Shown here one piece after another: positions 12,905 through 59,002 of a stretch of 64,000 nt of DNA. The notes under the pieces were generated by a model. That model made no database searches. It had not been told where the DNA came from and saw only the letters and a list, made by a program, of their open reading frames with translations. Every line of letters begins with the position of its first letter. Position 1 is the stretch's first letter. This DNA comes from Bacilli bacterium (GTDB taxonomy: Bacteria > Bacillota_I > Bacilli_A > RFN20 > UBA1709): the NCBI GenBank assembly GCA_050949315.1, contig JBMNFL010000001.1:901888-965887 (forward strand). The letters run 5' to 3'. Both the position numbers and the translations under genes were made by a program.

Positions 12905-12914
12905 ACGTGTTAGA

Positions 12915-13002: not shown

Positions 13003-13006
13003 GAAT

Positions 13007-22595: not shown

Positions 22596-23348
22596 ATGCT
22601 TCTTAGTTGGTTTTCCGAAGCTATTGAGAGAATAAACTATCCAGATTTAATAGTTTCTTTTGTCATGATTTTAATCCTAAGTTTCTTCTGTTTTAAGAAT
22701 ACAAACAACAGAAAAGTTTTTGCTTTGTTGCTGGTTATTTATGTATTAATGGTCATAGTTGCCATCTTAGATTATGGTATATCTTACACGGTTTTGGAGG
22801 TCGCTTTAATCATCGCGGCGGCCAGTTATGTTTCCTTGTCTTTCTCAGATCTTGGCCCTTTCTTCAGTCGCAAACCTAGGCGTAAAAAAGTTGAACCTCT
22901 TCCGGAGGAGACAATAGAGCAACTTATTGAAATTATCAATGAAACTGTCATGCTCTTATCAGAAACGAAAACAGGAGCAATTATTACCTTTGAAAAAAAT
23001 GAAGACCTTAGTGAATATATAAACATGGGTGACGCAGTTGATGCCCCAGTAACCTCAGAATTACTAAGAACCATCTTTTATGAAGGGACTCCACTTCATG
23101 ATGGAGCGGTTATCATAAGGGATGGTAAGATAGCGGCGGCCTCAGTTTATTATACGCCAACAACTAGACCACTAAACGGGAAGTATGGTGCTCGGCATCG
23201 AGCCGCCATCGGCTTTAGTGAAGTTCATCGTTCAATCACAGTGGTTGTCAGCGAGGAAACGGGGCGAATTTCCTTTGCTGTAGAAGGCGAATTGATTTCT
23301 GTCTCACGGGACAGTTTTAAAAGACGGCTGATTGAGTACTTAAGCTAA
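22596..23348 (+). CDS. cdaA: Diadenylate cyclase CdaA (c-di-AMP synthase) with N-terminal TM segments
   Basis: DisA_N signatures DGAVII and RHRAAIG. 250 aa with 2-3 N-terminal TM helices. No cdaR or glmM follows. Confidence 0.85.
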   Translation: MLLSWFSEAIERINYPDLIVSFVMILILSFFCFKNTNNRKVFALLLVIYVLMVIVAILDYGISYTVLEVALIIAAASYVSLSFSDLGPFFSRKPRRKKVEPLPEETIEQLIEIINETVMLLSETKTGAIITFEKNEDLSEYINMGDAVDAPVTSELLRTIFYEGTPLHDGAVIIRDGKIAAASVYYTPTTRPLNGKYGARHRAAIGFSEVHRSITVVVSEETGRISFAVEGELISVSRDSFKRRLIEYLS

Positions 23349-23421: not shown

Positions 23422-24927
23422 ATGGCAAAATACACTGAAAAAACATCACACACTTTTAATGAGTATCTTCTTATTCCAGGTTATTCTTCTGAAGAATGTA
23501 TACCCGCGAATGTTTCTTTAAGAACACCTCTGGTGCGTTTTAAAAAAGGAAAAGAACCAGCATTACACTTGAATGTTCCTTTAGTCTCAGCCATTATGCA
23601 GGCGGTTTCTGATGATCGTTTAGCCGCAGCTTTAGCTAAAGAGGGTGGCATATCTTTTATTTATGCTTCCCAGTCAATAGAGGATGAGGCTGCTATGATT
23701 AGACGTGTTAAAAAACATAAGGCTGGTTTTGTTCGCAGCGACTCAAATATCCGTCCTGACCAAAGTTTAAAGGATGTTCTCGCTTTAAAAGCTAGAACGG
23801 GTCATTCCACTATTGCTGTTACGGATGATGGTAGTCCAGACGGTGTTTTGCTCGGTTTAATTACTGATCGTGATTATCGTTTAACTCGTACTAGTCCCGA
23901 AGCTAAAGTTTCAAGTTTTATGACGCCTTTTGAGCGCTTGATTTGTGGTCGTGAAGGCATTTCTCTAAGTGCAGCGATAGACCTTATTTGGGAGAAAAAG
24001 TTAAATACTTTACCAATTGTTGATGAGAATAATCGTCTTTGTAATATGGTCTTCCGTAAAGATTATGAAGCTCATAAAGCTCACCCCAATGAGCTTTTAG
24101 ATAGCAACAAGCGTTTTCTAGTTGGCGCGGGTATTAATACTCGGGATTATGAGGAGCGTGTTCCAGCCTTGCTTGAGGCGGGGGCTGACATACTTTGTAT
24201 CGATTCTTCTGATGGTTTTTCCTTTTGGCAGGAAAAGACAATTAAATGGATTAGAAAAAAATATGGCAATAAAGTTAAGGTTGGCGCCGGCAATATTATC
24301 GATAGAAAAGGCTTCCGTTTTCTAGCCGATTGCGGTGCTGATTTTGTCAAGGTTGGTATCGGCGGCGGCTCAATTTGTATAACTAGAGAAACTAAAGGAA
24401 TTGGTCGGGGGCAAGCTACGGCATTGATAGATGTTTGTGCCGAAAGAGATCTTTATTTCCAAGAGACGGGTATTTATATTCCTGTTTGTTCAGATGGCGG
24501 CATTGTTCACGATCATCACATTACTCTAGCATTAGCCATGGGGGCCGACTTTGTTATGCTCGGTCGTTATTTTGCCCGTTTTGATGAGTCACCATCGCGG
24601 AAGATCAGTATGGGTGGTCGTTATTATAAGGAGTATTGGGGCGAGGGTTCAGCAAGGGCGAGAAACTGGCAACGCTACGATTTAGGTGGCGATCAAAAAC
24701 TCTCTTTTGAAGAGGGTGTCGATTCTTATGTTCCCTATGCTGGAAGTCTTAAATACAACGTGGGATTAACTCTTGCTAAGGTTAAATCTACGATGTGCAA
24801 CTGTGGCGCTTTAAGTATTCCTGAATTACAAGAAAAAGCAGTTCTCACTCTTGTTTCCGCTACTAGTATTGTGGAGGGTGGGGCCCATGATGTTGTGTGT
24901 AAAGAAGATATTAGCAAAACAGAATAA
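23422..24927 (+). CDS. guaB: IMP dehydrogenase family protein with a CBS pair
   Basis: Catalytic-loop [12 protein letters not shown] (Cys) and [12 protein letters not shown]-like insert at 100-230 aa. 501 aa. Confidence 0.8.
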
Positions 24928-24939
24928 GGGGTTTAGAGA

Positions 24940-25917
24940 ATGTATAGCAAACGTCCTTTGGACTTAGTAAGAATTGTTAATGAAGAACAGGCGCAGGCTT
25001 TCCTAACTACGCAAAGCGAGATTTTAAAAAAGCAGATAGGCGAACAAAAAGTTTTACTAGCCTTATCGGGTGGTGTTGATTCGGCGGTAGTGGCGGTATG
25101 GCTTTCAAAAATTATTAAACAAAATCTGATTTGCATTCATGTTAATAATGGCCTTCTACGGCAAGGCGAGAGCGAAGGTGTAGTAGAACTTTTTAAGGAC
25201 GAATTAAAAATAAATTTGCTGTCTGTTGATGCTAGCCAGCGTTTCTTAAAGTTATTAGAAGGAGTTTCTGATCCCGAAGAGAAACGTAAAATTATTGGGG
25301 AGACTTTTATTAAAGTTTTTCAGGAAGAAAGTAGTAAATTAAAAAACATTAACTTCTTAGCTCAAGGGACAATTTATCCCGATATTTTAGAAAGCGCGAA
25401 CGTTAAGGCTCATCACAATGTTGGCGGCTTACCAGAAGAGCTTGGTTTTCAACTGATTGAACCTTTAAAGTTTTTGTATAAAGATGAGGTTCGTCTGTTA
25501 GGCAAGGTTTTAGGCTTGCCAGACTCTTTGATTCATCGGCAACCCTTTCCTGGACCTGGTCTTGCAGTTCGCTGCTTAGGCGAGATTACACCTGAACGTT
25601 TAGAGATTGTTAGGAAATCCGATGCTATTTTGCGAGAAGAAATCGCTAACTATAAAATAGATACCAAAATTTGGCAATACTTTACAGTTGTTCCTAATTT
25701 CAAATCAACGGGTGTTGTTGATGGTCAAAGAAGTTATGCCTATCCTGTAATCATTCGAGCGGTCAATAGTGTTGATGCTATGAGTGCGGAAGTCTACGAG
25801 TTACCTTATGAACTCCTTCATAAATTGACCGAACGGATTACTAAGGAAGTAAAAAACGTCAACCGCGTTCTTTATGACTTAACTCCTAAACCTGTAGGAA
25901 CGATTGAATGGGAGTAG
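24940..25917 (+). CDS. guaA: GMP synthase ATP-pyrophosphatase (PP-loop) subunit. This is the GuaA C-terminal half as a stand-alone protein, without a glutamine amidotransferase domain.
   Basis: LALSGGVDSAV PP-loop. C-terminal dimerisation domain ending YDLTPKPVGTIEWE. 325 aa. Confidence 0.75.
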   Translation: MYSKRPLDLVRIVNEEQAQAFLTTQSEILKKQIGEQKVLLALSGGVDSAVVAVWLSKIIKQNLICIHVNNGLLRQGESEGVVELFKDELKINLLSVDASQRFLKLLEGVSDPEEKRKIIGETFIKVFQEESSKLKNINFLAQGTIYPDILESANVKAHHNVGGLPEELGFQLIEPLKFLYKDEVRLLGKVLGLPDSLIHRQPFPGPGLAVRCLGEITPERLEIVRKSDAILREEIANYKIDTKIWQYFTVVPNFKSTGVVDGQRSYAYPVIIRAVNSVDAMSAEVYELPYELLHKLTERITKEVKNVNRVLYDLTPKPVGTIEWE

Positions 25918-27115: not shown

Positions 27116-30100
27116 TTAAAGTTCAATACTTTCTTCAAAAAGAACAGTTTCGCTGTCATCATTTTTGATACCAATAAAGCGGAATTGGTAAATATAAGGA
27201 GCGGGTGTAGGTGGGGCCGATAACACCTGCTCATCGGTTAAGATGTTGCCAACAATATTTTGGACAATAGGATTTTCAGGATCTCTAGAATCCACTAATA
27301 AAACCTTGTAACTAACATATTGTTCTTGATAGTCACTATGACTATCAACTTTATAATATTTATTAGGATCTTGAGGTTTTTCATAGATAGAGACTATAGT
27401 TATTTTTTCAGTGTGATGTTCGTTATAGTAAACAAGGCGACCATCTTTCTGAATTTCAAAACGATAGAGGCTATCTTCATTTAAAATATTGTAGTTAACT
27501 ATAATTTGTACTAACTCGCCAGATCCATCTAACATATAGGCGATATTGGCATAATCATCAGAAATTTCATTGGGGTCGCTAGTTACCGCTTCAATTGTTA
27601 GTTCACTTAAAGGTGTTGTCTCGCCAGCCGGGATTAAAAGCAGGGTGATGGGCGAGAAATTACTGGCTTCCGTTTCAATAGTGAAGTGTATTTCTTGATC
27701 ACTCATTGAAATCTCGCTTTGTTGATAACTAAAGAGACTGATAGAATCTTCGTATAAGATTGCTTGTGAATTATCGTGTTTAATTCCAATTAATTCGAAA
27801 ATATAGGAATCGGGGCTGTAGTCGTTGGGATTTAAGACTTTTTCGCCACTCCAGTTTTCACCTAGTTGAATTAAGGGTTCAGAAGAAGGACTGTGTTCTC
27901 CTGTTAGTCTAACAGCATAACTCTTATACTGATCCTGATAATCGCTATGTTCAATTTGATAATAGACATTACTATCATCTTTCTTGGTTGAGAAACTGAC
28001 ATTGGTCACTTTTTCAGTATGGGAGTCAAAACTGATTAAGACTTCATCGTTCTCTGCCTTACTTAGTTGGAAAGATAAAGGTGTATTGGGCGGTAAGGGG
28101 TAGTAAAAGCTCAGCTGCAAGAGATTATCATCGACATTAGGAACAACGGTTACGTTACAATCACCATTTACGATAGTGTTAGACTCTGAACTATCAATAT
28201 TCATTACAATCTCAGTAGCCGAAATTGTTAGAATTGATTTTAAAGGAACAAAGTCATAATAAGAGAGGTTGATAGTAAAACTAACACCATTATTGCCAAC
28301 ATTTAAATCATCAAGGCGATAACTATCAATATATATTGTTTCTTCATATAAAGGTATTTCAAAGCTATCTTCTCTACTGATGCCATAAAGCTTATAAACA
28401 TATTGCCAAGCAGGGAAACTATCAAGTTGAATTACCTGCTCATCGCTGATCGAACCTTCTATGGATAAGGGATAGGTTTGGGGAGTAGCTCCGGCTTCAT
28501 TGACTATGCTAGTCAAAGTAGCAGTGTAGCCTTGATAAGAATTATTATAATCACTGGTACTGATTTGATAATAGAAGTTTTCATTATCGCCGGTTTTACG
28601 GTAAAAAGTTGCCGTGGTGTCTTTTTCGGTTCTAAAACTCAATTCATAGAGTATAGTTGAACCTCTTTGTAAGATAAAGTTATATTCGCTATCTGCCTGT
28701 AAGTAATACTGGAATTCTAGGGTAACAAGATCATCTTGAATATTAGGTGAGATACTCAGACGGTTATCCTCATTAAAAAGGGTATTATCTTCAGGACTAT
28801 CAATGTTAAAGACACTTTCAAATCCTTCCCCAGTTAATCTTGCCACCATTGGTTCGAAATCTTGATAGGGCGGCACATCGATGATGAGATAAGCATCGCT
28901 TGAAGTGATACTTAGCATCTTGGCCCTTATTGGCATAAATAAAACTTGTTCAAGTAGTAGCAGTTCATCTTGTAGGTTGTCTCTTAGGCGCCCAAAGAGT
29001 TTAAAGTTGTATTGAGGGGCGTTAAAGGTTGTTAGACTCAAAGCTTGTTCAGTATGGACGTTAGAACTAGTAAGTGTGAAATTTTCAATGTAAGGTGTAC
29101 CAGTTGTAACTTCGCTTATTTGTACGCGATAATCAAGAAATCTTTGCTGATAATCACTGGATTCAATTTGATAATAGAAGTTATCGTTATTGCTTGTTTT
29201 ACGGTAGAATTCCACAGAAGTTTCTTTTTCGCTTCTAAAATTCTTTTGATATAAAAGCTCGTTACCGCGTTTTAAGCGGAAAGTATAATTAGTGTCGGCA
29301 GTTAAACCAAAGAAACTGACATTTACAGTCAGAAGATTGTTTTCGCCAGGCGGATTTAGACTTATTGAAGCAAAGCTATTCGAAACTTGAGGCTGGTTAA
29401 GATTGTTAAGGGCAATCGTTTTTTCTTCGCTTCCTTTAAGCAAACTAAAAATAAGCGGGGCAAAGTTTTCCCTAGACAAATCTAGAGTTGTAGATAAGGA
29501 GAAATCATTATAAGTGAAATCTTGAGCAATTACCTTATCAATATTTACCGTTTCTCTTAGTAGTTCAAATTCATCGCCACTATCACGCAGAGTAGCATGG
29601 AGACTGATTTCATATTGCCAAGCATTATAGATAGTAAGGTCAATTTTTTGTTCATCAGTAATTGAACCGCTAACATCTAAATAATGTTCAGTTTGACTAC
29701 TGGCAGTTTCTGTTAGTTTAACTTTATATCCCGCATATCTTTCTTGATAGTCGCTAAGGTCAAATTGATAATAGAAATAGTTATTATCACCACTTTTATG
29801 ATAAAGGTTAACACTTGTTGTTTTTTCAGTTCTGATATCCCGTTCTAGAATCACACGATTTTGTTTAGTTAATTTAAAGTGGTAGAGTGCATCAGGTGTT
29901 AAATTCTCACAACTAAATTGGATTAAAATCTTATTTTCTTGAGTATTGACATGCAGGAAAACCCAAGAATTTTGGGTACTATATTCAGTTACATTAAGAT
30001 TTTCAATGTCAAAGTGTTCATTTAAATTCTCACCACTTAAGTCAAGGCTTAAAGTTGCGAAAGTATCACAGGGAAGTTCAAAAGAAAGTTGCAAGTCTTG

Positions 30101-31393
30101 ATCATTTATTTCTAAATAGACGAGTCGACCTTGATCAAAGGTTAATAGTTCTTCATAAAGGCTAATCTCACGTTCGTAAGTTTGACCAAAGCCATGCACA
30201 TAACTAAGTCCAATTAAGACAAAACGATATTGACTCTCGTCATAGTCAGCAAGCGTAATCTTTTGCTCGCTAAAGATATCGCCAACAAGAGGAAGTTCAT
30301 AATCTTGTTCGTCAACCAAACTGACAAGTTTTACCTTGTAAGCATGGAAACGTTTACGATAATCACTCATTGAAATTTGGTAATATAGATCAGGGTCATT
30401 ATCCTTATAATGGAACTCAACCTTTAATTGTTTTTCGGTATGGAAGGTTTCCTGATAGAATTTGCGTTTGTTTCTCTGAACTTGGAATTTATAGACGGAA
30501 TCTTCTTGTAAATTGTTATAGTAAAGATTTAAAAGCAAACGATTTTCGCTAGCTAAAGGGCAGACTTCTAGAGAACTGTTTTCTTGTGAGAAACTCTGTT
30601 CTTCATTGCTTTCAACTTGGAAAGTACTAAAGATATTACCGGCTTGATCAATTAAATCAAGACTTAAAGTTTTGAAATTTGAATTAGCAAGTTCAAAGGT
30701 GAAACTTAAATCTTTATCGGTAATTTCTAGATTACTGACGTGATAATTACCTGTTTGCACTTGCTCCTCATAGATGGTTGTGCCACCCAAATTCCCTTTG
30801 TCAATGACTTTAAAAGTATAAAGGTTGTTAGCTTCCAGCCCAGTATAAAAACAATAAAAATTAACGGTTTCTAAATCGGTTTCTGTACGCACATTATCTA
30901 AAAGAGTGTAAAAAGAATCACTGCTTTCAAAAGAAGTGATGGCCGTTTCTTTTTTGTGATAATCATTACCAAAAGAAATAAGCAAATTAGGATTCTCATA
31001 GTAATCCATTTCTAGATTAATTTGATATTCGTTAAGTGAGAGTTCACTAAAAACTTTTTTAATTTGAGGCGAGTTTAAAGCGGTAACAGCAGCTGTGGAT
31101 ACGACAACCGAAGCCACAGCAGCGTAGGAAACTAATTTACTGATGCCACTTGCTCCGGCTTCGTGAGCCTTGGCACCTCTTATGCCACCGCCTCTTCTAT
31201 GGGTTTTCTTACTAAAAAGTTCGCTGTTTTCTTCATCTGTTTCTTTGCGATTTCGTTCATGTGAAGAACGATATTCTCTTTTCGAACGAAAATTATTTTC
31301 ATCACTATAATTATGTTCATGGTAAGGTCTATTTTCATAACCAAAGCGGCGATGGTCGGCTTCTTTTCGCTGGTAATTATTATTGTTTTCCAC
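27116..31393 (-). CDS. Giant (1425 aa) type-II membrane protein with ~6-7 tandem ~200-aa extracellular repeats. Function unknown.
   Basis: GTG start with a GGAGGTGG Shine-Dalgarno. Disordered R/E/N/H-rich N-terminal ~85 aa, one TM (VSYAAVASVVVSTAAVTAL), then repeats each carrying HTEK..V.FY.K..D.N.YYQ(I/F)..SDYQ..Y..Y.V.L and LSLDLS blocks. YYQ recurs at about aa 337, 541, 740, 941, 1144 and 1346. The ~570-bp DNA period shows as related antisense ORFs at 28478 and 29045. Confidence 0.8.
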   Translation of the reverse strand: MENNNNYQRKEADHRRFGYENRPYHEHNYSDENNFRSKREYRSSHERNRKETDEENSELFSKKTHRRGGGIRGAKAHEAGASGISKLVSYAAVASVVVSTAAVTALNSPQIKKVFSELSLNEYQINLEMDYYENPNLLISFGNDYHKKETAITSFESSDSFYTLLDNVRTETDLETVNFYCFYTGLEANNLYTFKVIDKGNLGGTTIYEEQVQTGNYHVSNLEITDKDLSFTFELANSNFKTLSLDLIDQAGNIFSTFQVESNEEQSFSQENSSLEVCPLASENRLLLNLYYNNLQEDSVYKFQVQRNKRKFYQETFHTEKQLKVEFHYKDNDPDLYYQISMSDYRKRFHAYKVKLVSLVDEQDYELPLVGDIFSEQKITLADYDESQYRFVLIGLSYVHGFGQTYEREISLYEELLTFDQGRLVYLEINDQDLQLSFELPCDTFATLSLDLSGENLNEHFDIENLNVTEYSTQNSWVFLHVNTQENKILIQFSCENLTPDALYHFKLTKQNRVILERDIRTEKTTSVNLYHKSGDNNYFYYQFDLSDYQERYAGYKVKLTETASSQTEHYLDVSGSITDEQKIDLTIYNAWQYEISLHATLRDSGDEFELLRETVNIDKVIAQDFTYNDFSLSTTLDLSRENFAPLIFSLLKGSEEKTIALNNLNQPQVSNSFASISLNPPGENNLLTVNVSFFGLTADTNYTFRLKRGNELLYQKNFRSEKETSVEFYRKTSNNDNFYYQIESSDYQQRFLDYRVQISEVTTGTPYIENFTLTSSNVHTEQALSLTTFNAPQYNFKLFGRLRDNLQDELLLLEQVLFMPIRAKMLSITSSDAYLIIDVPPYQDFEPMVARLTGEGFESVFNIDSPEDNTLFNEDNRLSISPNIQDDLVTLEFQYYLQADSEYNFILQRGSTILYELSFRTEKDTTATFYRKTGDNENFYYQISTSDYNNSYQGYTATLTSIVNEAGATPQTYPLSIEGSISDEQVIQLDSFPAWQYVYKLYGISREDSFEIPLYEETIYIDSYRLDDLNVGNNGVSFTINLSYYDFVPLKSILTISATEIVMNIDSSESNTIVNGDCNVTVVPNVDDNLLQLSFYYPLPPNTPLSFQLSKAENDEVLISFDSHTEKVTNVSFSTKKDDSNVYYQIEHSDYQDQYKSYAVRLTGEHSPSSEPLIQLGENWSGEKVLNPNDYSPDSYIFELIGIKHDNSQAILYEDSISLFSYQQSEISMSDQEIHFTIETEASNFSPITLLLIPAGETTPLSELTIEAVTSDPNEISDDYANIAYMLDGSGELVQIIVNYNILNEDSLYRFEIQKDGRLVYYNEHHTEKITIVSIYEKPQDPNKYYKVDSHSDYQEQYVSYKVLLVDSRDPENPIVQNIVGNILTDEQVLSAPPTPAPYIYQFRFIGIKNDDSETVLFEESIEL

Positions 31394-35215: not shown

Positions 35216-35337
35216 TGCACAGGCCTCCTGCTTTTCTAAATGATAACATAAATGATTTTAAAATTGAGAGAAAAATTGACAGGAACTTGGTTAGCCCATA
35301 AAATAATAGAGTAAATAAGCGCTTGAGAGGGAAGAAA

Positions 35338-36231
35338 ATGCAATTATATGGCTGGAACTTTGAATTAGAAATATTGCGGTCTTTGGAAAATGTACGCAGT
35401 GATTTTTTTAATGGCCTTTTTGAAATGATAACAATGATAGGCGAGGAGACCATTTTTATTATAGTTGCTGCTCTCTTCTATTTTGTGATAGATAAGAAGT
35501 TTGGAGAAAAACTTCTTTACACTCTCTGTTTTGTCAATGCCTCAACGATGGTTATTAAGAATTTGACTAAAATCCCAAGACCCTTTGTTGCCGATAGTAG
35601 TTTACAACCAATAAGAGTAGAAACAGCAACAGGTTATTCTTTTCCTAGTGGCCACACAGCGATGGCCAGTGGCTGGCTATGTACAGTTGCTCGTTATTTT
35701 AAGAAAAAATATCTTCTTTCAATCGCTGTCATTATAAGTTTTCTTGTTGGGTTTTCTAGAGTCTATCTAGGAGTGCATTATCCGAGTGATGTTATTGCTG
35801 GTCTTATTATTGGTTTAGTTGGTGGTTTAGGTCTAGCATATCTTTTTGATGAAGCCAAAAACAAAGGACTTGTGGCCTTAGCTTCTACTTTGGTTTTTCT
35901 GCCTTTTATTCTGCATTTTAGTTTTAATCCTGATCCCCAATACGCGGATTTTTTTAAGACCTATGGTGTCATTCTTAGTTTTGGAACCGCCTTTTATTTT
36001 GAAGAACATTTTGTCAATTTTGATAACAAAGGGCCTTTGTTTAAGCGTTTGTTGCGATTGATTATTGGTATAGCTTTTGCCTTAGGTATAAAAATTGGGC
36101 TCAAGGCTTTATTTGACTTAATATCCGGTTCTTTGTTGGTAAACCAGTTTTTAGATCTTTTACGTTACTTCATTTTAGGTTTTGCCACCTTAGGGCTTTA
36201 TCCCTGGTTTTTTAAAAAACTTGGCTTCTAG
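35338..36231 (+). CDS. PAP2-family membrane phosphatase
   Basis: KIPRPF, PSGHT and SRVYLGVHYPSDV PAP2 motifs. The ORF track starts at TTG 35323. The ATG at 35338 has a GAGAGGGAAG Shine-Dalgarno. Confidence 0.8.
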   Translation: MQLYGWNFELEILRSLENVRSDFFNGLFEMITMIGEETIFIIVAALFYFVIDKKFGEKLLYTLCFVNASTMVIKNLTKIPRPFVADSSLQPIRVETATGYSFPSGHTAMASGWLCTVARYFKKKYLLSIAVIISFLVGFSRVYLGVHYPSDVIAGLIIGLVGGLGLAYLFDEAKNKGLVALASTLVFLPFILHFSFNPDPQYADFFKTYGVILSFGTAFYFEEHFVNFDNKGPLFKRLLRLIIGIAFALGIKIGLKALFDLISGSLLVNQFLDLLRYFILGFATLGLYPWFFKKLGF

Positions 36232-38542: not shown

Positions 38543-39124
38543 GTGAAACCTTTGACGATGTTAGTTCCTGATGATGAACTCATCGAACAAATAAGGTTTA
38601 AAAATGATTTGGCATTGGATTTGTTGTTGACTAGGTATGAAGGTTTTATAAATAGTTGGGTTGAAAAAATTTTTCTTAAGAAGAAAGATCATTTAGAACG
38701 TGAAGATATGTTACAGATTGCGCGCATCACACTTTGGGATTGTCTTAATTGTTATCAGGCAAATAAAGGCAATTTTTACGCCTATTCAAAACGCTGCGTT
38801 CGCAATGCTTTAGTAGCCCATTATCAAAATTATTTACAACAGACATCTTTTATTTCTTTGGATGATGACAAGACCCGTTTTTTAGCGGAAACTAGCCTAA
38901 AATTTACTTTAGATAATCAGCCAAAAAATCAAGAAACTAAAGAGTTGCTCGCTAAATTATTAACAAACAAAAAAATGGGGTCAATAGAAAGAGAAATATT
39001 GAAATATCGCCTGTTGGGTTATAGTTATAAAGATATCGCACAAATTTTGGGAATAACTGTTAAAAAAGTTGATAATCTTTTGGTAAAGATTAAGAAATTG
39101 GCGCGTTATCCTAAAGTAAAATAA
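38543..39124 (+). CDS. sigH: Sigma-70-family sigma factor, SigH-like
   Basis: The region-2-like DMLQIARITLWDCLNCYQ, the region-4 HTH YSYKDIAQILGITVKKVDNLLVKIKK, and its position after rlmB all match sigH of Bacillus. The start could be GTG 38543, TTG 38552 or ATG 38558. Confidence 0.7.
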   Translation: MKPLTMLVPDDELIEQIRFKNDLALDLLLTRYEGFINSWVEKIFLKKKDHLEREDMLQIARITLWDCLNCYQANKGNFYAYSKRCVRNALVAHYQNYLQQTSFISLDDDKTRFLAETSLKFTLDNQPKNQETKELLAKLLTNKKMGSIEREILKYRLLGYSYKDIAQILGITVKKVDNLLVKIKKLARYPKVK

Positions 39125-39188
39125 GTTGTCTTGTCTTATATTTATAAAAGTGTTAAATTATATTTAACTTAAAGATGGAGGACTTTTT

Positions 39189-40379
39189 ATGGATATATTT
39201 GCTAAATGCCGTGTTCCAGAAGCCGTTCACGATACTAAGAAAGCGGGAATTTATCCTTATTTTCACTATTTGAGTTCTAAGCAAGACACTGAAGTCATTA
39301 TGGAAGGTAGAAAAACCATAATGATTGGTTCTAATAATTATCTGGGTTTGACTTCCGATCCTCGCGTTATTGAAGCGGGCATGAAGGCTTTAGAAAAATA
39401 TGGCACTGGTTGTTCGGGAAGTCGTTTTCTGAACGGCACTTTAGATATTCATTTAGACTTAGAACAAGCCTTAGCTAAATTCCTTCGTAAGGAAGATGTG
39501 GTAACTTTTTCAACGGGCTTCCAATCAAATTTAGGTATTATCAGTGCGGTAGTCGGTTTTAATGATTACATTGTTTGTGATAAAGAAAATCATGCGAGTA
39601 TTTATGATGGTGCGAAGTTAAGTTACGGTAGGCTTGTTCGTTATGAACATGGCGATATGGAAGATTTAGAAGCCAAGTTGGCAGGTTTAGACTTAGAAAG
39701 ATTTGGGGCGATAATTATCACGGATGGCGTTTTTAGCATGAGTGGTGATATCGCTAAGTTGCCTGATATTTGTCGCTTAGCTAAAAAATATGGCGCCCGA
39801 GTTATGGTTGATGATGCCCATGGTCTTGGGGTGTTAGGAAAAGGAGGCCGGGGCACGGCTGAACATTTTGGCCTTGAAGAAGAAGTCGATATTATTATGG
39901 GGACTTTTTCTAAATCGCTCGCTAGTCTTGGTGGCTATATGGCGGCTAGCAAAGAACTCTGTGATTATGTCCGTCACACCTCTCGTCCTTTTATCTTTAG
40001 TGCTAGTATAACTCCGGTTTCTGTAGCTTGTGCTCGTGAGGCCTTAAGAATTATTGAGGCTGAGCCAGAAAGAGTAAAGAGACTTTTAGATCTCAGCCAA
40101 TATATGCGCGATGGTTTACGTAAAGTTGGTGTTCCTATTATTGAGGCGGAAACACCGATTGTCCCTATTTATGTTTACGATGATTTAAAGGCTTTTGAGG
40201 CTTGTAAATTGCTTTTAGAGCGTGGGGTTTATGTCAACCCTGTCGTTTCGCCAGCTACACCAGTAGGTATGGCCTTACTAAGGACCAGTTATACAGCGAC
40301 TCATACCTATGAGCAATTAGACTATGCCATTAAACAAATTAAAGAAGTTCTCGTTATTTTAGGTGTTATTAATGACTAA
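39189..40379 (+). CDS. Alpha-oxoamine synthase (PLP-dependent), serine-palmitoyltransferase-like. It is most similar to SPT rather than to KBL or BioF.
   Basis: GSNNYLGL, RFLNGT, TFSTGFQSNLGIIS, ENHASIYDG, ITDGVFSMSGDIAKL, DDAHGLGVLGKGGRG, GTFSKSLASLGGY (lysine motif of SPT-type enzymes) and RPFIFSASITP. 396 aa. Confidence 0.75.
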   Translation: MDIFAKCRVPEAVHDTKKAGIYPYFHYLSSKQDTEVIMEGRKTIMIGSNNYLGLTSDPRVIEAGMKALEKYGTGCSGSRFLNGTLDIHLDLEQALAKFLRKEDVVTFSTGFQSNLGIISAVVGFNDYIVCDKENHASIYDGAKLSYGRLVRYEHGDMEDLEAKLAGLDLERFGAIIITDGVFSMSGDIAKLPDICRLAKKYGARVMVDDAHGLGVLGKGGRGTAEHFGLEEEVDIIMGTFSKSLASLGGYMAASKELCDYVRHTSRPFIFSASITPVSVACAREALRIIEAEPERVKRLLDLSQYMRDGLRKVGVPIIEAETPIVPIYVYDDLKAFEACKLLLERGVYVNPVVSPATPVGMALLRTSYTATHTYEQLDYAIKQIKEVLVILGVIND

Positions 40380-41157
40380 AGTAGTCGTAATCACAGGGGC
40401 CACCTCAGGTATTGGTGAGGCCACGGCCCTTTTCTTAAAAGATAAAGGTTACTGCGTCTATTCTTTGGCTAGACGAGTTAAAGATATCGAGGGTATCAAC
40501 TATTTAAGCTGCGATGTTACTGATAAAGAAGCCATCGCTAAGGCATTAGCAACCATTTATCAAAAAGAGGGCTCTATTTTTGCCTTGATTAATAATGCCG
40601 GTATTGGTATTGGTGGTGCTTTTGAAACGACCGATGAAGAAGAGGTTAGAAAAATTCTAGCCGTCAATCTTGAGGGGCCTTTAAATGCCAGTCAACTAGT
40701 TATCCCCTATCTTAAAAAAAGTCAGGGAAGAATTATCAATATTGGGAGTATCGCTGGTGAAATTCCCATTCCTTTTCAAACACATTACTCCTTAACAAAA
40801 GCTGGGCTTGCAATGTTTAGTCAAACGCTAGCCTTGGAATTAAAACCATTAGGCATTAAAGTTTCCTGTGTTTTACCAGGCGATACCAAAACCTCTTTTA
40901 CTAACAATCGGGTCAAACAGATGGCTAGCGAAGATTATGGGGAAAGAATAAGTCGATCTTTAAAACGGATGGAGAAAGATGAAAAAAATGGAGTCGAGCC
41001 AATAAAGGTAAGTAAAGTAATTTATAAATGTCTAACGAAGAAAAATCCTCCAGTTAAGGTGGCCGTGGGCTTTGGTTATAAATGTATTTGTCTATTAAAT
41101 CGCTTATTGCCTACTAGATTTGTTAATTGGGTTGTATATCGTTTATATGCTAAATAA
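40363..41157 (+). CDS. Classical short-chain dehydrogenase/reductase (SDR). Candidate 3-keto-amine reductase partner of the SPT-like enzyme.
   Basis: TGATSGIGEA cofactor motif, NNAG, and the catalytic YSLTKAG (YxxxK). It overlaps the upstream gene's stop by 17 nt. 264 aa. Confidence 0.8.
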   Translation: MLLMTKVVVITGATSGIGEATALFLKDKGYCVYSLARRVKDIEGINYLSCDVTDKEAIAKALATIYQKEGSIFALINNAGIGIGGAFETTDEEEVRKILAVNLEGPLNASQLVIPYLKKSQGRIINIGSIAGEIPIPFQTHYSLTKAGLAMFSQTLALELKPLGIKVSCVLPGDTKTSFTNNRVKQMASEDYGERISRSLKRMEKDEKNGVEPIKVSKVIYKCLTKKNPPVKVAVGFGYKCICLLNRLLPTRFVNWVVYRLYAK

Positions 41158-41210
41158 GAAGCTATGCTTCTTTGCTAAATTTTAATATCTAGTTAAGCGT
41201 GCTAGATATA

Positions 41211-41240
41211 TTGACAAAAAGCTCAATTTCATGGTAATAT
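41211..41240 (+). promoter_or_regulatory. Sigma-A-type promoter for rpmG-secE-nusG
   Basis: TTGACA (41211-41216), an 18-nt spacer, then an extended -10 TGgTAATAT (41232-41240). Confidence 0.55.
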
Positions 41241-41262: not shown

Positions 41263-41412
41263 ATGCGCGAAAAAGTGATTTTGGTTTGTAGTCAATGTCT
41301 CTCGCGGAATTATCGGGCGACACGCCAAAAATATGACAAGCAAAACCGTCTAGAAGTTATGAAGTTTTGTAAAAAGTGTAATGCTCACACTTTGCATAAA
41401 GAAAGCAAATAG
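41263..41412 (+). CDS. rpmG: 50S ribosomal protein L33. Not in the ORF track because it is only 49 aa.
   Basis: Translation is [49 protein letters not shown], with the two Cys pairs of L33. A GAGGTGG Shine-Dalgarno is upstream. Confidence 0.85.
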
Positions 41413-42307: not shown

Positions 42308-43240
42308 ATGTTTTTAGATATTAGTTCTTATATTCAAAATGAAACTGCGATGTGGGTTTTGATTGGCGTATTGGCTTTGGTTTTATTGATCTGTGTCATT
42401 AAGTGTACGGCTGATGGCATAGTCAAATGTCTTTTCAATCTGGCTTATTTTGCCCTTTTTATTGTCATGATTGCCTTTTTAGGGCCACTGGTGGCTTCTT
42501 GGTTAAAGCCTATTGGTTTTTGGGAGAATCTTTTATCAATCAATGCAAGTCTAGAATCGGCTCTGAGTTTTATTGATGCCGACCTAGCTTATTTTATTTG
42601 TGCTATTTTAATTATTTTAGTGGCCTTCATGATAATCGTCTTTATTTTAAATCGTGTTTTCCGGAAGGTTAAAAATATTAAAAACAAACAAAGTCGTTTT
42701 GTCGGCTTCATCTATGGCTTTTTCATTTTCTTTATTTTATCGGCGGCTTTTTTGGAACTTTTCACTTCGCCTTTTTTGGTAAAAGGTGGCAAACAGTTAG
42801 TTGATAAAGCCTCATATCTTAAACTTTATCATAATCATGTAACTGAACCGGTTTTTGAAATTTTTGATAAAGAAGGTGTTCCTTTTAGCGTTGATGGGGC
42901 CTTTGTTGCTGGTTATAGCGGAGCCAAGGACAATAAGAAAGTATATTTAGAGGCATTTAAGCAATATGAAACTTATATGCTGAATTCTAACGAATATGTA
43001 AAGACCTTAAAAGATGGTAGTAATTATAATGAAGAAAAAGTTAATAACGCGGCCTTAAATTATTGCCGAGTTGTTGATGTTGCCACTTGTTCCACTTCTT
43101 TTGGTTATGCTAAACTGAAGGACACCCTAAAAAATTCGGCCAATGATTGGTATGCTAAAATACCTAAGGAATTATTAAGTGGCGAAACTAAAACCCAATT
43201 AGAACAAGCTTTTAATCGTTTAGGGGTTTCTTTAGAGTAA
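42308..43240 (+). CDS. Hypothetical membrane protein with 4-5 N-terminal TM helices and a ~150-aa C-terminal soluble domain. It is inserted between nusG and rplK.
   Basis: Hydrophobic N-terminal half, then a polar domain (...YLKLYHNHVTEPVFEIFDKEGVPFSVDG...). An upstream extended -10 TGtATAAT is at 42277-42285. Confidence 0.55.
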   Translation: MFLDISSYIQNETAMWVLIGVLALVLLICVIKCTADGIVKCLFNLAYFALFIVMIAFLGPLVASWLKPIGFWENLLSINASLESALSFIDADLAYFICAILIILVAFMIIVFILNRVFRKVKNIKNKQSRFVGFIYGFFIFFILSAAFLELFTSPFLVKGGKQLVDKASYLKLYHNHVTEPVFEIFDKEGVPFSVDGAFVAGYSGAKDNKKVYLEAFKQYETYMLNSNEYVKTLKDGSNYNEEKVNNAALNYCRVVDVATCSTSFGYAKLKDTLKNSANDWYAKIPKELLSGETKTQLEQAFNRLGVSLE

Positions 43241-44493: not shown

Positions 44494-44559
44494 ACTTGAA
44501 TCTTTAAGTTGACTCTGCTAGAATTAGTTAGTCATCAATATACCAAAGACAGTAACGGC

Positions 44560-44646
44560 CGTTTAGGCTTAATCAGGTTACCGAGGTGTGCAAGATGCGT
44601 ATTTCATTTATGCGCTTAAACCCACACATCTCATGTGGGTTTTTAA
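44560..44646 (+). promoter_or_regulatory. rplJ (L10) leader with a terminator-like attenuator hairpin
   Basis: ~200-nt untranslated leader before rplJ. The hairpin CCCACA, loop CAUCUCA, UGUGGG is followed by UUUUU at 44640-44645, consistent with the Firmicutes L10-leader autoregulatory element. Confidence 0.5.
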
Positions 44647-44700
44647 TTAAAAGGTATATTGTTGCCTATAGATTATTGCAACAAGGAGGTGCAAAAAAGA

Positions 44701-53991: not shown

Positions 53992-55173
53992 ATGCCCAAA
54001 AAACTCAGAGTCTTAGAAGGCATGGATGTCTATTTACCAGACACTGATGGGGTAATCAACGCCTTACATAATTATAGTTTGAACCTCTATAAAAGAGTTG
54101 ATTTAACTGTCATGGCCCCTAAGCATCGCGGTCATATTGATAATCAAGCGTACAGAATTATTCGCTGTCGTTCTTTGCGTGTGCCTATTATCGATAATTA
54201 TTATGGTTTACCAAGTAGAGATAGCAAGTTTAAACAAAGGCTTTTGCGAGAAGATTACGATATCATTCATATTCATTCACCTTTTGCCATGTTGCGTTTT
54301 GGACTTAAACTTGCTAGGAAAAAGGGCATTCCTATCGTCGCTACTTTTCATAGTGATATGCGCACAATTTTTAAAAGCATGTTCTTCTTTAATTGGATTG
54401 TTAATGCTTTGGTCAATAGGATAGGCAAACTTTATAATCAAGTAGATGAAGTCTTCTGTATTTCCTCTTTAGTTGAAGAGCAATTGCGCTCTTATGGCTA
54501 TACAGGCAAGGTTACTTATTTACCTTATGGTACTGATTTTGCGCGTTCAAATAAAGTAGAAGAACTTTGGGAAGAAGGCAATCAAAAATTCGATCTTGAG
54601 AATGAAGAAACGCTCTTTATTTTTGTTGGTAGAATCATGAAATTAAAAAGGATTGATTTCATCCTTGAAAGTTTAAAAATTGTCAAGGAAAATGGCTACA
54701 AATTTAAATTCAAAATTGTAGGAAAAGGCCCTGAAACTCGTATTTTAAAAAGAAAAGTTAAAGAGTTAAAATTAGAGAATGAAGTTTGCTTCCTTGGTTT
54801 CATTCCGCGTGAAGATTTTCCAGCCCTTTATGCACGCGGCGATCTACTTTTATTTCCCTCTTTATATGACAATTTCGGTCTTGTTAAAGTGGAAGCTGCC
54901 GCCTTTGCTACCGCGGGTTTATTTATTGAAAATTCCTGTGCTGGCGATGGGATAATTGATGGAGTTAATGGCTACTTAGCCGCTAACAATCCTGAGGCTT
55001 TTGCTAGTAAAATTATAGAAGCAATTAAGGATAAAGAAAAACTTCGACAGGTGGGTTTAAAAGCCTGGGAAGATGTTTATATTTCTTGGGATGAATGTTC
55101 GCAACAATTATTAAAGCGACTTGAGGCCATTGTTTTAGATAAGAAAGCTCAAAAGGAAAAGGTGTCCGCGTGA
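53992..55173 (+). CDS. GT4-family glycosyltransferase, likely a glycolipid (glycosyl-diacylglycerol) synthase
   Basis: GT-B C-terminal domain carrying the E-X7-E-like motif (GLVKVEAAAFATAGL). 393 aa. Confidence 0.75.
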   Translation: MPKKLRVLEGMDVYLPDTDGVINALHNYSLNLYKRVDLTVMAPKHRGHIDNQAYRIIRCRSLRVPIIDNYYGLPSRDSKFKQRLLREDYDIIHIHSPFAMLRFGLKLARKKGIPIVATFHSDMRTIFKSMFFFNWIVNALVNRIGKLYNQVDEVFCISSLVEEQLRSYGYTGKVTYLPYGTDFARSNKVEELWEEGNQKFDLENEETLFIFVGRIMKLKRIDFILESLKIVKENGYKFKFKIVGKGPETRILKRKVKELKLENEVCFLGFIPREDFPALYARGDLLLFPSLYDNFGLVKVEAAAFATAGLFIENSCAGDGIIDGVNGYLAANNPEAFASKIIEAIKDKEKLRQVGLKAWEDVYISWDECSQQLLKRLEAIVLDKKAQKEKVSA

Positions 55174-55491: not shown

Positions 55492-57141
55492 ATGGGGGAT
55501 TCAATGGCCAGAATTTATCGAACAGGAGAAATCATTTACGGGATAGTTACCGGTTTTCAGCCTTATGGGGCTTTTGTCGAATTAAAGGATGGTGGCACGG
55601 GTTTAGTACACATCTCTGAGATCTCGGCGGACTATGTTCGTAATATTGAGGATTATCTTAAATTAGGCGAGGAGACACTTTTTTATGTCATTGATTATGA
55701 TGAAGAACGCGCCCACGCCCGTTTAAGCTTAAAGCGTTTAAGAAAAGAGGGAAGAAATAAAAGAAAGGCCGCCTTGTTTAAACGCAATAAGAAAGAACTA
55801 GATAAAAACAAGGATCTTTTCCCCTTTATTTCCGAAATAGTAGATGAAATTTTAAAGAAAGAACAGGCTCAAAAAATGTTAAGTATTGATAAAAATTATT
55901 GTTTAAGAGATTTCGATTATCAAAATTATCAAAGTGAAATTGATAGGGTCGATGAATTAATTCGTAAGCGAACAGGACTTGGTGGGGATTTTTTAGGTTT
56001 CTTAGATTATGCCCATACTTTTGATGATAAAGAACTTTTAAGAATCCTGCGTTTAGCAGAAGAAATTCGTGGCAAATACGACACCTTTGTTGTCTGTGGT
56101 ATCGGGGGTTCTTATCTAGGGGCAAAAGCAGGCATTGAAATGCTTAAAACACCTAATTTTACTAATGATATAGAACTATTATTTTTAGGCAACACCTTTT
56201 CTTCTGACTATACGAAAAACCTTTTAGAATATTTAGAGAGCCGTGATTTTGCTATCAATGTTATCTCTAAGAGTGGCTCAACCTTAGAAACCGCCATCGG
56301 CTTTCGTTTCCTAAGGGAGTTGCTAATCAAAAAATATGGCAAAGAAGAGAGTAGAAGACGCATTTTTATCACTACTGATAGTGAAAAAGGCGAGTTGCGA
56401 ACTTTAAGCAACAGGGAAGGTTACACTTCTTTTGTAATACCCGATAATATTCAAGGTCGTTACTCGGTTTTCACTCCCGTCGGTCTTTTTCCTTTAGCAA
56501 TAGCAGGTGTAGATATCGCTAGTTTGTTACAGGGAGTAAGAAAAGCGATGCTTGATCTTGAAAGTAAAAGTGTCCAAGAAAATGCTGCTTATCAGTACGC
56601 TCTTTTAAGAAGAGAGTTAGCAAAAGAAAAAACGGTTGAACTTTTCGTCAGTTATGAACCCACTTTACTTTATTTTGCTGAATGGTGGAAACAACTATTT
56701 GGAGAGTCAGAAGGTAAAGAAGGAAAGGGTCTTTTCCCAGCCAGTGCTATCTATTCAACTGACTTACATTCTCTAGGACAATTTGTTCAAGATGGTAAAA
56801 AAACATTATTTGAAACCATGCTTTTATTTGATGAAAGCGCAGAGTTAGCTATTCCCGAACTGTCTGATGGTCAAAGTGTATTAGATAGACTTGAAGGAAG
56901 GGACTTAAGTTTTCTTAATAAAATTGTCAGCAAGGCGACTATTAAGGCCCATAATTTAGGGGGAGTTCCTATTATTTTACTGCGTTATCCCAAACGTGAT
57001 GCCTTCGGCTTTGGTTACCTTTGTTATTTCTTTATGTTTAGTATTGTAGCTTCCGCTTATCTAATTGGGGTCAATCCCTGTGATCAGGAAGCGGTTGAGG
57101 TCTATAAAAAAGAAATAAAGAAGTTATTAAGTGAAGATTAA
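55492..57141 (+). CDS. pgi: Glucose-6-phosphate isomerase with an in-frame N-terminal S1 RNA-binding domain (YugI/GSP13-like)
   Basis: aa 1-100: GEIIYGIVTGFQPYGAFVELKDGGTGLVHISEIS is an S1 domain. From about aa 135: LRDF...GGDFLGFLD...FVVCGIGGSYLGAKA...ISKSGSTLET...YFAEWWKQLFGESEGK is a full bacterial PGI. There is no stop codon between the two parts. Confidence 0.85.
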   Translation: MGDSMARIYRTGEIIYGIVTGFQPYGAFVELKDGGTGLVHISEISADYVRNIEDYLKLGEETLFYVIDYDEERAHARLSLKRLRKEGRNKRKAALFKRNKKELDKNKDLFPFISEIVDEILKKEQAQKMLSIDKNYCLRDFDYQNYQSEIDRVDELIRKRTGLGGDFLGFLDYAHTFDDKELLRILRLAEEIRGKYDTFVVCGIGGSYLGAKAGIEMLKTPNFTNDIELLFLGNTFSSDYTKNLLEYLESRDFAINVISKSGSTLETAIGFRFLRELLIKKYGKEESRRRIFITTDSEKGELRTLSNREGYTSFVIPDNIQGRYSVFTPVGLFPLAIAGVDIASLLQGVRKAMLDLESKSVQENAAYQYALLRRELAKEKTVELFVSYEPTLLYFAEWWKQLFGESEGKEGKGLFPASAIYSTDLHSLGQFVQDGKKTLFETMLLFDESAELAIPELSDGQSVLDRLEGRDLSFLNKIVSKATIKAHNLGGVPIILLRYPKRDAFGFGYLCYFFMFSIVASAYLIGVNPCDQEAVEVYKKEIKKLLSED

Positions 57142-57910: not shown

Positions 57911-57986
57911 TGGCTGGGGCACCTGGATTCGAACCGGGGAAATGGTAGAGTCAGAGTCTACTGCCTTACCGCTTGGCTATGCCCCA
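57911..57986 (-). tRNA. tRNA-Gln (anticodon CUG)
   Basis: UGGGGCAU-A-GCCAAGCGGUAAGGC-A-GUAGA-CUCUGAC-UCUAC...UUCGAAU...GUGCCCCA-G-CCA. It has the bacterial tRNA-Gln U1-A72 pair and G73. One C-A mismatch in the T-stem. Confidence 0.75.
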
Positions 57987-58060: not shown

Positions 58061-59002
58061 TTAATTGTCAAGACATATGTTACACTTTGAGAAATATTCT
58101 GTTACAACTTGATTAGGGCTTTTAAAGTTAAGACATGTTTTAGCTGTATTGTTATATCGCTGCTCGTGTTTAGCTACTTGTTGTCTAAGTTCTTTCTCGC
58201 TAATAAAGATTTTTCGCCCATACAGAATTTTTCCATCTTCTCTATGACTTCTTTCAACTTTTCCGTTCTGCCACGGTGAATAAGGTCTCGTCCTTTTTAA
58301 TTTTATTCCTAACTTATTGGCCATCAGTTCAAATATACTCGTTTTATTAGTACGATCATCATCATTTACAAATTCGGCTCCGTTGTCCACTTGTATCATA
58401 TTAATTGGAAATCCCATGGCTTTTTCTAGGCTTTTAAGATATTTTGTCGTTTCGTACGTACTCTTCTCTTTGACTATACAGAGAATTCTTTTGCGACTAA
58501 ACTCATCAATTCCAGTGATTTGATAATATCTGTCTCCATATGTTGGGAATTTTATGCATTCAAGGGGAACATACTTTATATCTATCTGCACCTTGTCTCC
58601 AGGATATTTTCCGTCCAATCTTTCGTATTTTGTATAACTCTTACGATGAATTTCCGGGGTTTTATAACCCTTTTTTCGTATTTGTCGACACATACTCCCA
58701 AAACTTCTTTTATACCCTTTTTGACAACATCGAACATATACTTCTGCCAATCCATAAACACCATTTCTTCTTAACATTCGCTTAATTAGCGACAGCTCAT
58801 CATCTGTATGAGCATTTGGACTAGTCAGGGGTCTTCTTGAGCGTAAGGCAAGACTTCTGATGTCCCCATCATATTTGTTTAATTGCCTATAAACAAACTG
58901 ACGGTTGGTGTGATAACGCCTTGCGGCTCTTGTTACACCATTTTTGAGCGCATATTCACACATTTTCTGGCGAAAGCGCATTTCTTCGGTTATACTAGTC
59001 AT
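58061..59002 (-). CDS. DDE transposase with an rve (integrase-core) domain and an N-terminal HTH, as a single ORF (IS481-family-like)
   Basis: The catalytic residues fall in VQIDIKYV (D), IQVDNGAEF (D) and PYSPWQNGKVERSHR (E). 313 aa. Confidence 0.85.
   Translation of the reverse strand: MTSITEEMRFRQKMCEYALKNGVTRAARRYHTNRQFVYRQLNKYDGDIRSLALRSRRPLTSPNAHTDDELSLIKRMLRRNGVYGLAEVYVRCCQKGYKRSFGSMCRQIRKKGYKTPEIHRKSYTKYERLDGKYPGDKVQIDIKYVPLECIKFPTYGDRYYQITGIDEFSRKRILCIVKEKSTYETTKYLKSLEKAMGFPINMIQVDNGAEFVNDDDRTNKTSIFELMANKLGIKLKRTRPYSPWQNGKVERSHREDGKILYGRKIFISEKELRQQVAKHEQRYNNTAKTCLNFKSPNQVVTEYFSKCNICLDN

Follow-up and report, generated by a model that had tools for sequence, protein, structure and literature searches.

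A candidate serine palmitoyltransferase-reductase gene pair between a sigH-like gene and rpmG in an uncultured Bacilli genome

The 64,000-nucleotide stretch analyzed here (the window; positions 901,888 to 965,887 of contig JBMNFL010000001.1, from the metagenome-assembled genome (MAG) of a Bacilli bacterium) contains two adjacent forward-strand genes whose products most likely carry out a condensation of the serine palmitoyltransferase (SPT) type followed by an NADPH-dependent 3-keto reduction, which would yield a sphinganine-type base. The first gene (39189..40379) specifies an SPT-like, pyridoxal 5'-phosphate (PLP)-dependent α-oxoamine synthase (AOS) of 396 residues, and the second (40372..41157) a KdsR-like classical short-chain dehydrogenase/reductase (SDR) of 261 residues. 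This reading is based on the families to which the two proteins belong, the conservation of their active sites, their folds, the phylogenetic position of the AOS, and the pairing of the two genes, which recurs in many Bacillota. A preliminary description of the window had proposed a sphingoid-base module, and the proposal is supported by the retention of the SPT active site and by an SDR whose nearest family is KdsR. Both open reading frames that it reported are present, as are all of the motifs that it quoted (GTFSKSLASLGGY, RFLNGT, TFSTGF...NLGIIS, and RPFIFSASITP in the AOS; TGATSGIGEA and YSLTK in the SDR). It had taken the SDR frame in its longest form, 264 residues from a GTG (40363..41157), giving a 17-nt overlap with the AOS gene; gene callers run on six metagenome contigs carrying the identical locus instead start the SDR at the ATG at 40372, which reduces the overlap of AOS stop and SDR start to 8 nt (ATGACTAA). 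The identical 8-nt overlap is found in an 80% relative (locus L007).

The AOS matches the Pfam family Aminotran_1_2 (PF00155) with 207 bits, and its top NCBIfam model is the Bacteroidota serine palmitoyltransferase SerpalmtaseCFB (NF047600; 541 bits, cut-off 640). Lower scores were obtained with the models for betaproteobacterial SPT (410 bits, cut-off 500), KBL (405 bits, cut-off 460, with a second KBL score of 336, cut-off 493), BioF (376 bits, cut-off 426.45), ALAS (263 bits, cut-off 338.55), and the CqsA type (203 bits, cut-off 428). The SPT family score exceeds that of KBL by 136 bits and that of BioF by 165. As a calibration, a Bacteroidaceae MAG orthologue scored 663 bits, above the SPT cut-off, and a Smithellaceae outgroup sequence was recognized as BioF (468 vs 426). 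Four other Bacillota AOS proteins gave 506-556 bits on the SPT model, with margins of 120-160 over KBL and BioF, and seven other clade members, from Bacillota or other phyla, ranked SPT first in the same way (425-570 bits). The closest solved structure is the SPT of Sphingobacterium multivorum (SmSPT; 436 bits), followed by Thermus KBL/BioF (∼300), the Sphingomonas SPTs (292-300), the KBL structures from Coxiella, E. coli, and Cupriavidus together with 7V58 (260-291), the cysteate acyltransferase SulA (229-230), and CqsA (118). An AlphaFold2 (AF2) model of the AOS (predicted local distance difference test score (pLDDT) 89) superimposes on SmSPT 8GUH with a template-modeling (TM) score of 0.95 and a root-mean-square deviation of 1.7 Å.

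To compare active sites, the SmSPT substrate complexes (PMC10196870) were used as a guide; 19 positions were examined, and 18 Bacillota sequences were compared. At 16 of the 19, the window AOS and 17-18 of the 18 Bacillota sequences carry the SmSPT residue. Eleven of these bind PLP or L-serine and are identical in all 18 (SmSPT Asn52, Tyr54, Gly80, Ser81, His138, Ser185, Asp210, His213, Thr241, Ser243, and Lys244); the others are Phe83, Leu84, Ala212, Phe272, and Ala274. In the numbering of the window protein, the Schiff-base lysine is Lys242 (codon 39912-39914), and further active-site residues are His135, Asp208, His211, Asn49, Ser78, Ala272, and Arg365, the last of which aligns with the conserved carboxylate-binding arginine, likewise kept in 18 of 18. 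The three differences from SmSPT are Ala79 to Ser76, Ser53 to Asn50, and Met271 to Ile269. The characterized SPT of S. wittichii has Thr, Asn, and Val at SmSPT positions 79, 53, and 271, and because it too departs from SmSPT there, these changes are no argument against an SPT. Lys242 lies within a GTFSKS motif. The preliminary description had contrasted this segment with GTLGKA in KBL, which is correct for E. coli KBL, and with TLSKA in BioF, which is not: E. coli BioF has TFGKGF, and TLSKA belongs to the Thermus KBL/BioF type.

A neighbor-joining tree was built from 36 sequences and 367 columns with 300 bootstraps, support being read as bipartitions. Its references were E. coli KBL and BioF from the K-12 record and SmSPT, S. 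wittichii SPT, and Thermus KBL from PDB alignments; ALAS, CqsA, and SulA were compared with the AOS by score, outside the tree. The Bacillota AOS proteins form a clade with 77% support, containing a core of 15 at 98%, and its sister, at 57%, is a Bacteroidota SPT clade that is itself supported at 100%. The SPT-like group, which includes both the S. multivorum and S. wittichii SPTs, separates from the KBLs of E. coli, Thermus, and Caldisericota at 93%. Identities to the window AOS are 52% for SmSPT, 54% for the Bacteroidaceae SPT, and 41% for S. wittichii SPT, as against 41% for Thermus KBL, 37% for E. coli KBL, and 29% for BioF. The phylogeny thus places the protein with characterized SPTs and apart from KBL, and family scores, structure scores, and tree agree with the earlier suggestion that it is closer to bacterial SPT than to KBL, BioF, or ALAS. 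Taken together, we conclude from these sequence comparisons that the AOS is SPT-like and not a KBL, BioF, ALAS, CqsA, or SulA; identities as CqsA, ALAS, or BioF were rejected on the family and structure scores.

The SDR matches Pfam adh_short (160 bits) and contains the TGATSGIG NAD(P) motif, an NNAG motif, and the tetrad Asn99/Ser126/Tyr139/Lys143. Twelve positions are invariant in 40 SDR homologues: T8, G9, G13, I14, G15, N75, A76, G77, N99, S126, Y139, and K143. The top NCBIfam model among 215 matches is the Bacteroidota 3-ketodihydrosphingosine reductase KdsR (NF049977; 234.7 bits), matched over its full length (SDR residues 4-262 on residues 2-267 of the 267 in the model); PRK06179 comes second with 186.9. 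KdsR also ranked first for nine of nine SDRs from diverse Bacillota AOS cassettes (195-291 bits), with a lead over the generic PRK06179 subfamily of only 10-50 bits in cassette SDRs. In the AF2 model (pLDDT 92) the C terminus is extended by helices, as in lipid and steroid SDRs, and the best TM score, 0.92, is with human 17β-HSD1, a lipid-substrate SDR. Arg34-Arg35 follows strand β2, which we take to be an NADP(H)-type signature under the established classification of classical SDRs. The family model therefore suggests a KdsR-like reductase.

Conservation of the pair was evaluated in a comparative scan of one genome per GTDB species, which returned 77 loci, 57 of them Bacillota AOS loci. An SDR orthologue (36-65% identity) adjoins the AOS gene in 40 of the 57, mostly 6-99 nt on its 3' side and in a few cases divergent and upstream. 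This adjacency of synthase and reductase provides independent genomic support for the KdsR-type assignment. Members of the AOS clade are 58-80% identical to the window protein; cultured carriers were looked for, but those with names are all MAGs, labeled Clostridia, Oscillospiraceae, Ruminococcaceae, Christensenella, Lachnospiraceae, Hungateiclostridiaceae, Izemoplasmatales, and Xianfuyuplasma. Their sources are digesters, the rumen, and horse, chicken, and human (Hadza, Nepal) samples. The Oscillospiraceae branch is very common in metagenomes, where its 90%-identity clusters have 934, 1032, and 1805 members. When neighbors within 6 kb of the AOS were clustered over the 57 loci to look for a conserved third gene (for a ceramide synthase, acyl carrier protein, or acyl ligase), the only recurring genes were the SDR and a MarR gene, the latter at 11 loci of one Oscillospiraceae sub-lineage; DegV occurs near the AOS in 2 of 57 loci, PAP2 in 1, and MMPL in none. 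The flanks are, for example, a spermidine-synthase-like gene and NuoE/F-like genes (L007), DegV and GGDEF genes (L008), or HtpG and LD-carboxypeptidase genes (L039). Since the AOS-SDR linkage is kept while the flanking genes are unrelated, the pair behaves as a self-contained cassette. Bacteroidaceae SPT loci have no adjoining SDR, in agreement with BT_0870 and BT_0972 being unlinked.

Several related loci differ in arrangement. In another 'Bacilli bacterium' MAG (L090/L091, 2317-8786), the only place where MMPL was seen, a TetR gene and a gene for an MMPL-family transporter of ∼1190 residues precede the cassette; MMPL transporters export lipids in mycobacteria. At L088/L089 (7281-8780) an SDR orthologue of 55% identity has no adjacent AOS, and an α/β-hydrolase gene lies upstream instead, beside htpG; htpG flanks the L039 cassette as well as this SDR.

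The proposed reaction sequence can be outlined on the SmSPT precedent. The AOS would hold PLP on Lys242 and bind L-serine as the external aldimine, with His135 stacking on the PLP ring and anchoring the carboxylate, and with Asn49, Gly77-Ser78, Thr239, and Ser241 supporting a water network around the serine hydroxymethyl group. Serine would then be joined to a long-chain acyl thioester with loss of CO2 to form 3-ketodihydrosphingosine (KDS); as donor, an acyl chain on acyl carrier protein (ACP) would be more plausible in a Bacillota cell. The SDR, using NADPH (Arg34-Arg35) and its Tyr139/Lys143/Ser126/Asn99 tetrad, would reduce the C3 ketone to give sphinganine. N-acylation and head-group addition would need genes elsewhere in the genome. 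The identity of the substrates (serine, chain length, ACP or coenzyme A (CoA) as carrier) and of the cofactor is inferred, as is what becomes of the base.

A number of points weigh against this assignment. Both proteins score below the equivalog cut-offs of their best families, the AOS at 541 vs 640 on NF047600 and the SDR at 234.7 vs 400 on KdsR, where its cassette relatives reach 195-291. The sister relation of Bacillota and Bacteroidota SPTs has just 57% bootstrap support in a simple neighbor-joining tree with few references, and two of the AOS positions that differ from SmSPT, Ser76 and Asn50, are near the substrate. Roughly one in four Bacillota AOS genes lacks a neighboring SDR. Ceramide-pathway genes and an ACP had been suggested as a check, and the scanned open reading frames of the window contain no recognizable ceramide synthase, CerR, dedicated ACP, or head-group enzyme; nor does any of these recur as a conserved neighbor of the AOS, within 6 kb, at the 57 loci. 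Sequence is a poor guide to the substrate of an SDR: 3-keto bases are reduced by several SDRs that are unrelated to one another (PMC11211663). An SPT-like homologue from Nostoc made no KDS, although that protein clustered outside the SPTs (PMC8895605). For the AOS clade as a whole, SPT activity is a prediction from sequence.

Some of these observations would also fit the same condensation and reduction acting on another amino acid or acyl chain to give a non-canonical long-chain amino alcohol in place of a membrane sphingolipid precursor, either free or serving in signaling or as an antimicrobial lipid; examples would be 1-deoxy-type bases from alanine or glycine and products of medium or branched acyl chains. 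We regard this as the main alternative, though an unlikely one. The two scores below cut-off point in this direction, as does the lack of a linked ceramide synthase in the window and the 57 loci; Ser76 replaces the SmSPT alanine at a site that contacts the substrate side chain via water w3, and SmSPT can use Ala and Gly, though inefficiently (PMC10196870). Export or regulatory genes also neighbor the cassette in some relatives (TetR-MMPL at L090/L091, MarR at 11 loci). However, every residue of the serine hydroxyl and carboxylate network is kept, and position 79 is Ser, Thr, or Ala across SPT-clade sequences, including the characterized S. wittichii enzyme. The 58-80% identity across classes and the native composition of the genes suggest a core lipid role.

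A threonine/glycine module, in which the AOS would be KBL and the SDR a threonine 3-dehydrogenase (TDH), is highly improbable. KBL and SPT are closely related, the KBL model still gives 405 bits against a cut-off of 460, and kbl-tdh is a classical pairing in E. coli. The preliminary description had named clustering with KBL together with a TDH role for the SDR as evidence that would overturn its proposal, and neither was found. SPT leads KBL by 136 bits, the two groups split at 93% bootstrap, and the window AOS has the SPT-type residue in all five columns in which the SPT and KBL sets are each uniform and different; the motif is GTFSKS rather than GTLGKA. Known TDHs are zinc-dependent medium-chain dehydrogenases/reductases (MDRs) or extended epimerase-like SDRs of ∼310-340 residues, whereas the window protein is a 261-residue classical SDR, and no TDH family appears among the best 25 of its 215 NCBIfam matches. 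The KBL/TDH reading was rejected on family scores, motif, and tree.

The preliminary description had also entertained sulfonolipid or quorum-signal chemistry, and neither fared well. Under a sulfonolipid (capnine) reading, the AOS would act as a SulA/CapB-type cysteate acyl-ACP transferase and the SDR as a 3-ketocapnine reductase, which we consider scarcely credible. The chemistry and gene types are equal, and KDSR-like SDRs reduce 3-ketocapnine (PMC11211663). However, Lys281 of SulA, the proposed discriminator from the alanine of SPT (PMC9304779), corresponds to SmSPT Ala274 and to Ala272 in the window AOS, and is Ala in 18 of 18 Bacillota sequences; SulA structures score 229-230 bits against 436 for SmSPT, and no cysteate synthase was seen nearby, in the window or at the 57 loci. 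A SulA identity was therefore rejected on the discriminator and the low similarity. An α-hydroxyketone or amino-ketone autoinducer synthase of the CqsA/LqsA type with a tailoring reductase, which would account for AOS family membership, is equally far-fetched given CqsA scores of 203 bits for the model (cut-off 428) and 118 for the structures, the weakest of the named AOS classes, and no adjacent sensor kinase.

SPT-type condensation and KdsR-type reduction thus remains our preferred reading, and two window genes may be considered beside it. A 302-residue PAP2-superfamily membrane protein is encoded 3 kb upstream (35323-36231, +) and also matches PAP2_3 and PAP2_C, Pfam families that presumably include inositol phosphorylceramide (IPC) and sphingomyelin synthases. 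A homologue (27% identity, phmmer 1.7e-21) lies immediately upstream of the AOS at L053 (6907-7878). The protein could act with the pair as a head-group enzyme or phosphatase, but such linkage was seen at just one of the 57 loci. The second gene encodes a family 4 glycosyltransferase (GT4; 53992-55173, +) with weak best matches to glucosaminyl-phosphatidylglycerol (GlcN-PG) synthase, monoglucosyl-diacylglycerol (DAG) synthase, and lipoteichoic acid (LTA)-anchor glycosyltransferases; it is a candidate membrane-lipid gene that merely shares the window with the cassette.

The gene order around the pair is cysS, a SpoU/TrmH methylase gene, a sigH-like gene, AOS, SDR, rpmG, secE, nusG, a CvpA-like gene, rplK, and rplA, continuing with an L10 leader, rplJ, rplL, a methyltransferase gene, rpoB, and rpoC. 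This is the Bacillus-type order of the B. subtilis map, the extras being the AOS-SDR pair and the CvpA-like gene. The location reported by the preliminary description, between sigH and rpmG, is correct as to position; the sigH label is less secure. The upstream neighbor (38543..39124, +), outside the module, encodes a divergent sigma-70 family factor with Pfam Sigma70_r2 and r4_2 domains that scores only ∼49 bits on SigH models (cut-offs 208-294), so its identity as sigH is by position only; its gene has the lowest G+C content among window genes (0.316, z -2.2). The placement of the pair at this site is found in this organism only, its closest relatives holding the pair in other contexts, and is a one-species peculiarity with no evident functional meaning. 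When relatives of the sigH-like gene were sought in the metagenome scan in order to date the insertion, only the same organism was returned. Recent horizontal transfer into the gap was considered and is unsupported: the composition of the AOS and SDR genes is native to the window (G+C 37.8%), with G+C z values of +0.8 and -0.1 and third-codon-position (GC3) z values of -0.6 for both, and there is no flanking repeat or integrase.

A 64-nt intergenic leader (39125..39188, +) precedes the AOS and contains a GGAGG ribosome-binding site (39177-39181) 7 nt 5' of the ATG. The SDR ATG at 40372 sits 6-7 nt 3' of AGGTG, and with the overlapping stop and start the two genes are predicted to be translationally coupled in a two-gene operon. 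No Rfam match, terminator-like site, or riboswitch was found in the leader, whose fold has a z of -0.4 relative to shuffles. A weak 7-bp hairpin directly 3' of the SDR stop (41156..41172, +) is followed by a T-rich stretch; the 56-nt stretch folds at -8.9 kcal/mol (z -0.5), no better than shuffles, and a terminator scan made no call there, which suggests a leaky terminator at best. Regulatory RNA or terminator elements around the pair were accordingly rejected. A promoter-like site 5' of rpmG (41211..41240, +; TTGACA-18 nt-TAATAT with TG, 10/12 matches in a consensus scan) likely marks the end of the AOS-SDR unit, and rpmG itself is called at 41263-41412 (+).

Other products of window genes are BacA, WhiA, an LD-carboxypeptidase, a cyclase for c-di-AMP, and a number of EAL/GGDEF proteins, and from this complement we infer a small-genome, walled, low-GC Bacillota host known from metagenomes only. 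Three EAL or GGDEF-EAL proteins (4318-6861, 6861-8324, and 59368-62463, +), one with a seven-transmembrane (7TM) sensor domain, together with the DAC c-di-AMP cyclase (22596-23348, +) in 64 kb of a ∼1-Mb-scale genome indicate heavy investment in cyclic-dinucleotide signaling. A second insertion in the Bacillus-like sigH-to-rpoC block, in the nusG-rplK gap, encodes a 310-residue membrane protein with a CvpA/Colicin_V domain (42308-43240, +); larger CvpA-domain proteins directly 3' of the AOS at L014 and L017 have no detectable similarity to it. Among structured RNAs, a tetrahydrofolate (THF) riboswitch (12072-12162, -) lies upstream of an energy-coupling factor (ECF) S-component gene (11489-12040, -), a thiamine pyrophosphate (TPP) riboswitch (12911-13019, +) upstream of a YuaJ-type thiamine transporter gene (13007-13591), and the ribosomal L10 leader (44525-44654, +) before rplJ. 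A 325-residue protein (24940-25917, +) that follows IMP dehydrogenase (23422-24927) aligns with GMP synthase only in the ATP-pyrophosphatase and C-terminal part, with no glutamine-amidotransferase domain detected in it; GuaA may be split. An unusual architecture, an N-terminal S1 RNA-binding domain with a phosphoglucose-isomerase-like (PGI/SIS) region, is present in a 549-residue protein (55492-57141, +). Open reading frames of 1425 (27116-31393, -) and 549 residues (354-2003, +) have no Pfam match, the latter no NCBIfam match either. The only obvious mobile-element gene in the window, an rve-family integrase/transposase gene (58061-59002, -) beside tRNA-Gln (57911-57986, -), is probably an insertion element.

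As enzymes the two are unremarkable; what draws attention is the phylum of the host, the fusion into a cassette, and the broad occurrence of that cassette in uncultured anaerobes, where the genes are currently annotated as just 'aminotransferase' and 'SDR oxidoreductase'. Bacillota are not normally counted among sphingolipid producers, although ceramide phosphoglycerol lipids were reportedly found in Acholeplasma axanthum in the 1970s, which would be a precedent in Mollicutes-related Bacilli. In a full-text literature search, no account of an SPT or a sphingolipid pathway from Firmicutes/Bacillota came up. One review lists 'Mycoplasma spp. sphingophospholipid' after Olsen and Jantzen 2001 and otherwise no Firmicutes producers (PMC10626005), and the sphingolipids made in the gut, which affect host immunity and lipid metabolism, are currently credited to Bacteroidota (PMC10865984, PMC9278070). 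More tentatively, and with doubt slightly outweighing confidence, we propose that many uncultured monoderm Bacillota make sphingoid bases, and perhaps sphingolipids, de novo via a compact, relocatable spt-kdsR cassette. Among them would be Oscillospiraceae that are very abundant in gut and rumen, further Clostridia, and Bacilli related to Mollicutes (Izemoplasmatales, Xianfuyuplasma). If this is true, Bacteroidota are not the sole anaerobic source of bacterial sphingolipids in gut ecosystems, and a conserved SPT-KdsR cassette in many uncultured Bacillota would broaden the set of candidate producers, some of the protein clusters concerned reaching about 900-1800 sequences in gut metagenomes. 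It would also caution against counts of 'spt' from broad orthologous groups such as COG0156 (10.1101/2021.12.01.470820). The cassette is a simple two-gene construct and is directly testable.

The pair can be compared with several known systems. The ceramide pathway of Caulobacter and other Proteobacteria (Spt, bCerS, CerR, a dedicated ACP, and an ACP synthetase) likewise begins with an SPT-type AOS and has clustered genes. That pathway acylates 3-KDS first and then reduces it with the epimerase-like CerR (PMC11087976, PMC10865984), whereas the partner here is a KdsR-like classical SDR and no bCerS or ACP is linked. E. coli Kbl-Tdh also places an AOS next to a dehydrogenase, but with 37% identity, another lysine motif, another clade, and a Tdh that is a 341-residue zinc MDR. 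SulA/CapB with ketocapnine reductase in Alistipes and Chryseobacterium shares the two-step logic and KDSR-like reductases (PMC11211663); the window AOS differs in having no Lys281 and far lower similarity. Bacteroides BT_0972/KdsR (NF049977; PMC9278070), compared via the model, is a classical SDR of ∼265 residues with the same Gly-rich motif and YxxxK, but it is unlinked to spt (BT_0870 vs BT_0972), whereas the SDR here is linked to the AOS. Bacteroidota SPT (SmSPT 3A2B/8GUH; B. thetaiotaomicron BT_0870; NF047600) resembles the window AOS as a soluble, homodimer-type AOS of ∼395 residues with 52-54% identity, GTFSKS, 16 of 19 PLP/L-serine contact positions, and the same fold (TM 0.95). The window protein differs in belonging to a separate, well-supported Bacillota clade in a monoderm-type Bacilli MAG, and, whereas Bacteroidaceae loci have no adjacent SDR, it is predicted to be encoded in an operon with its reductase.

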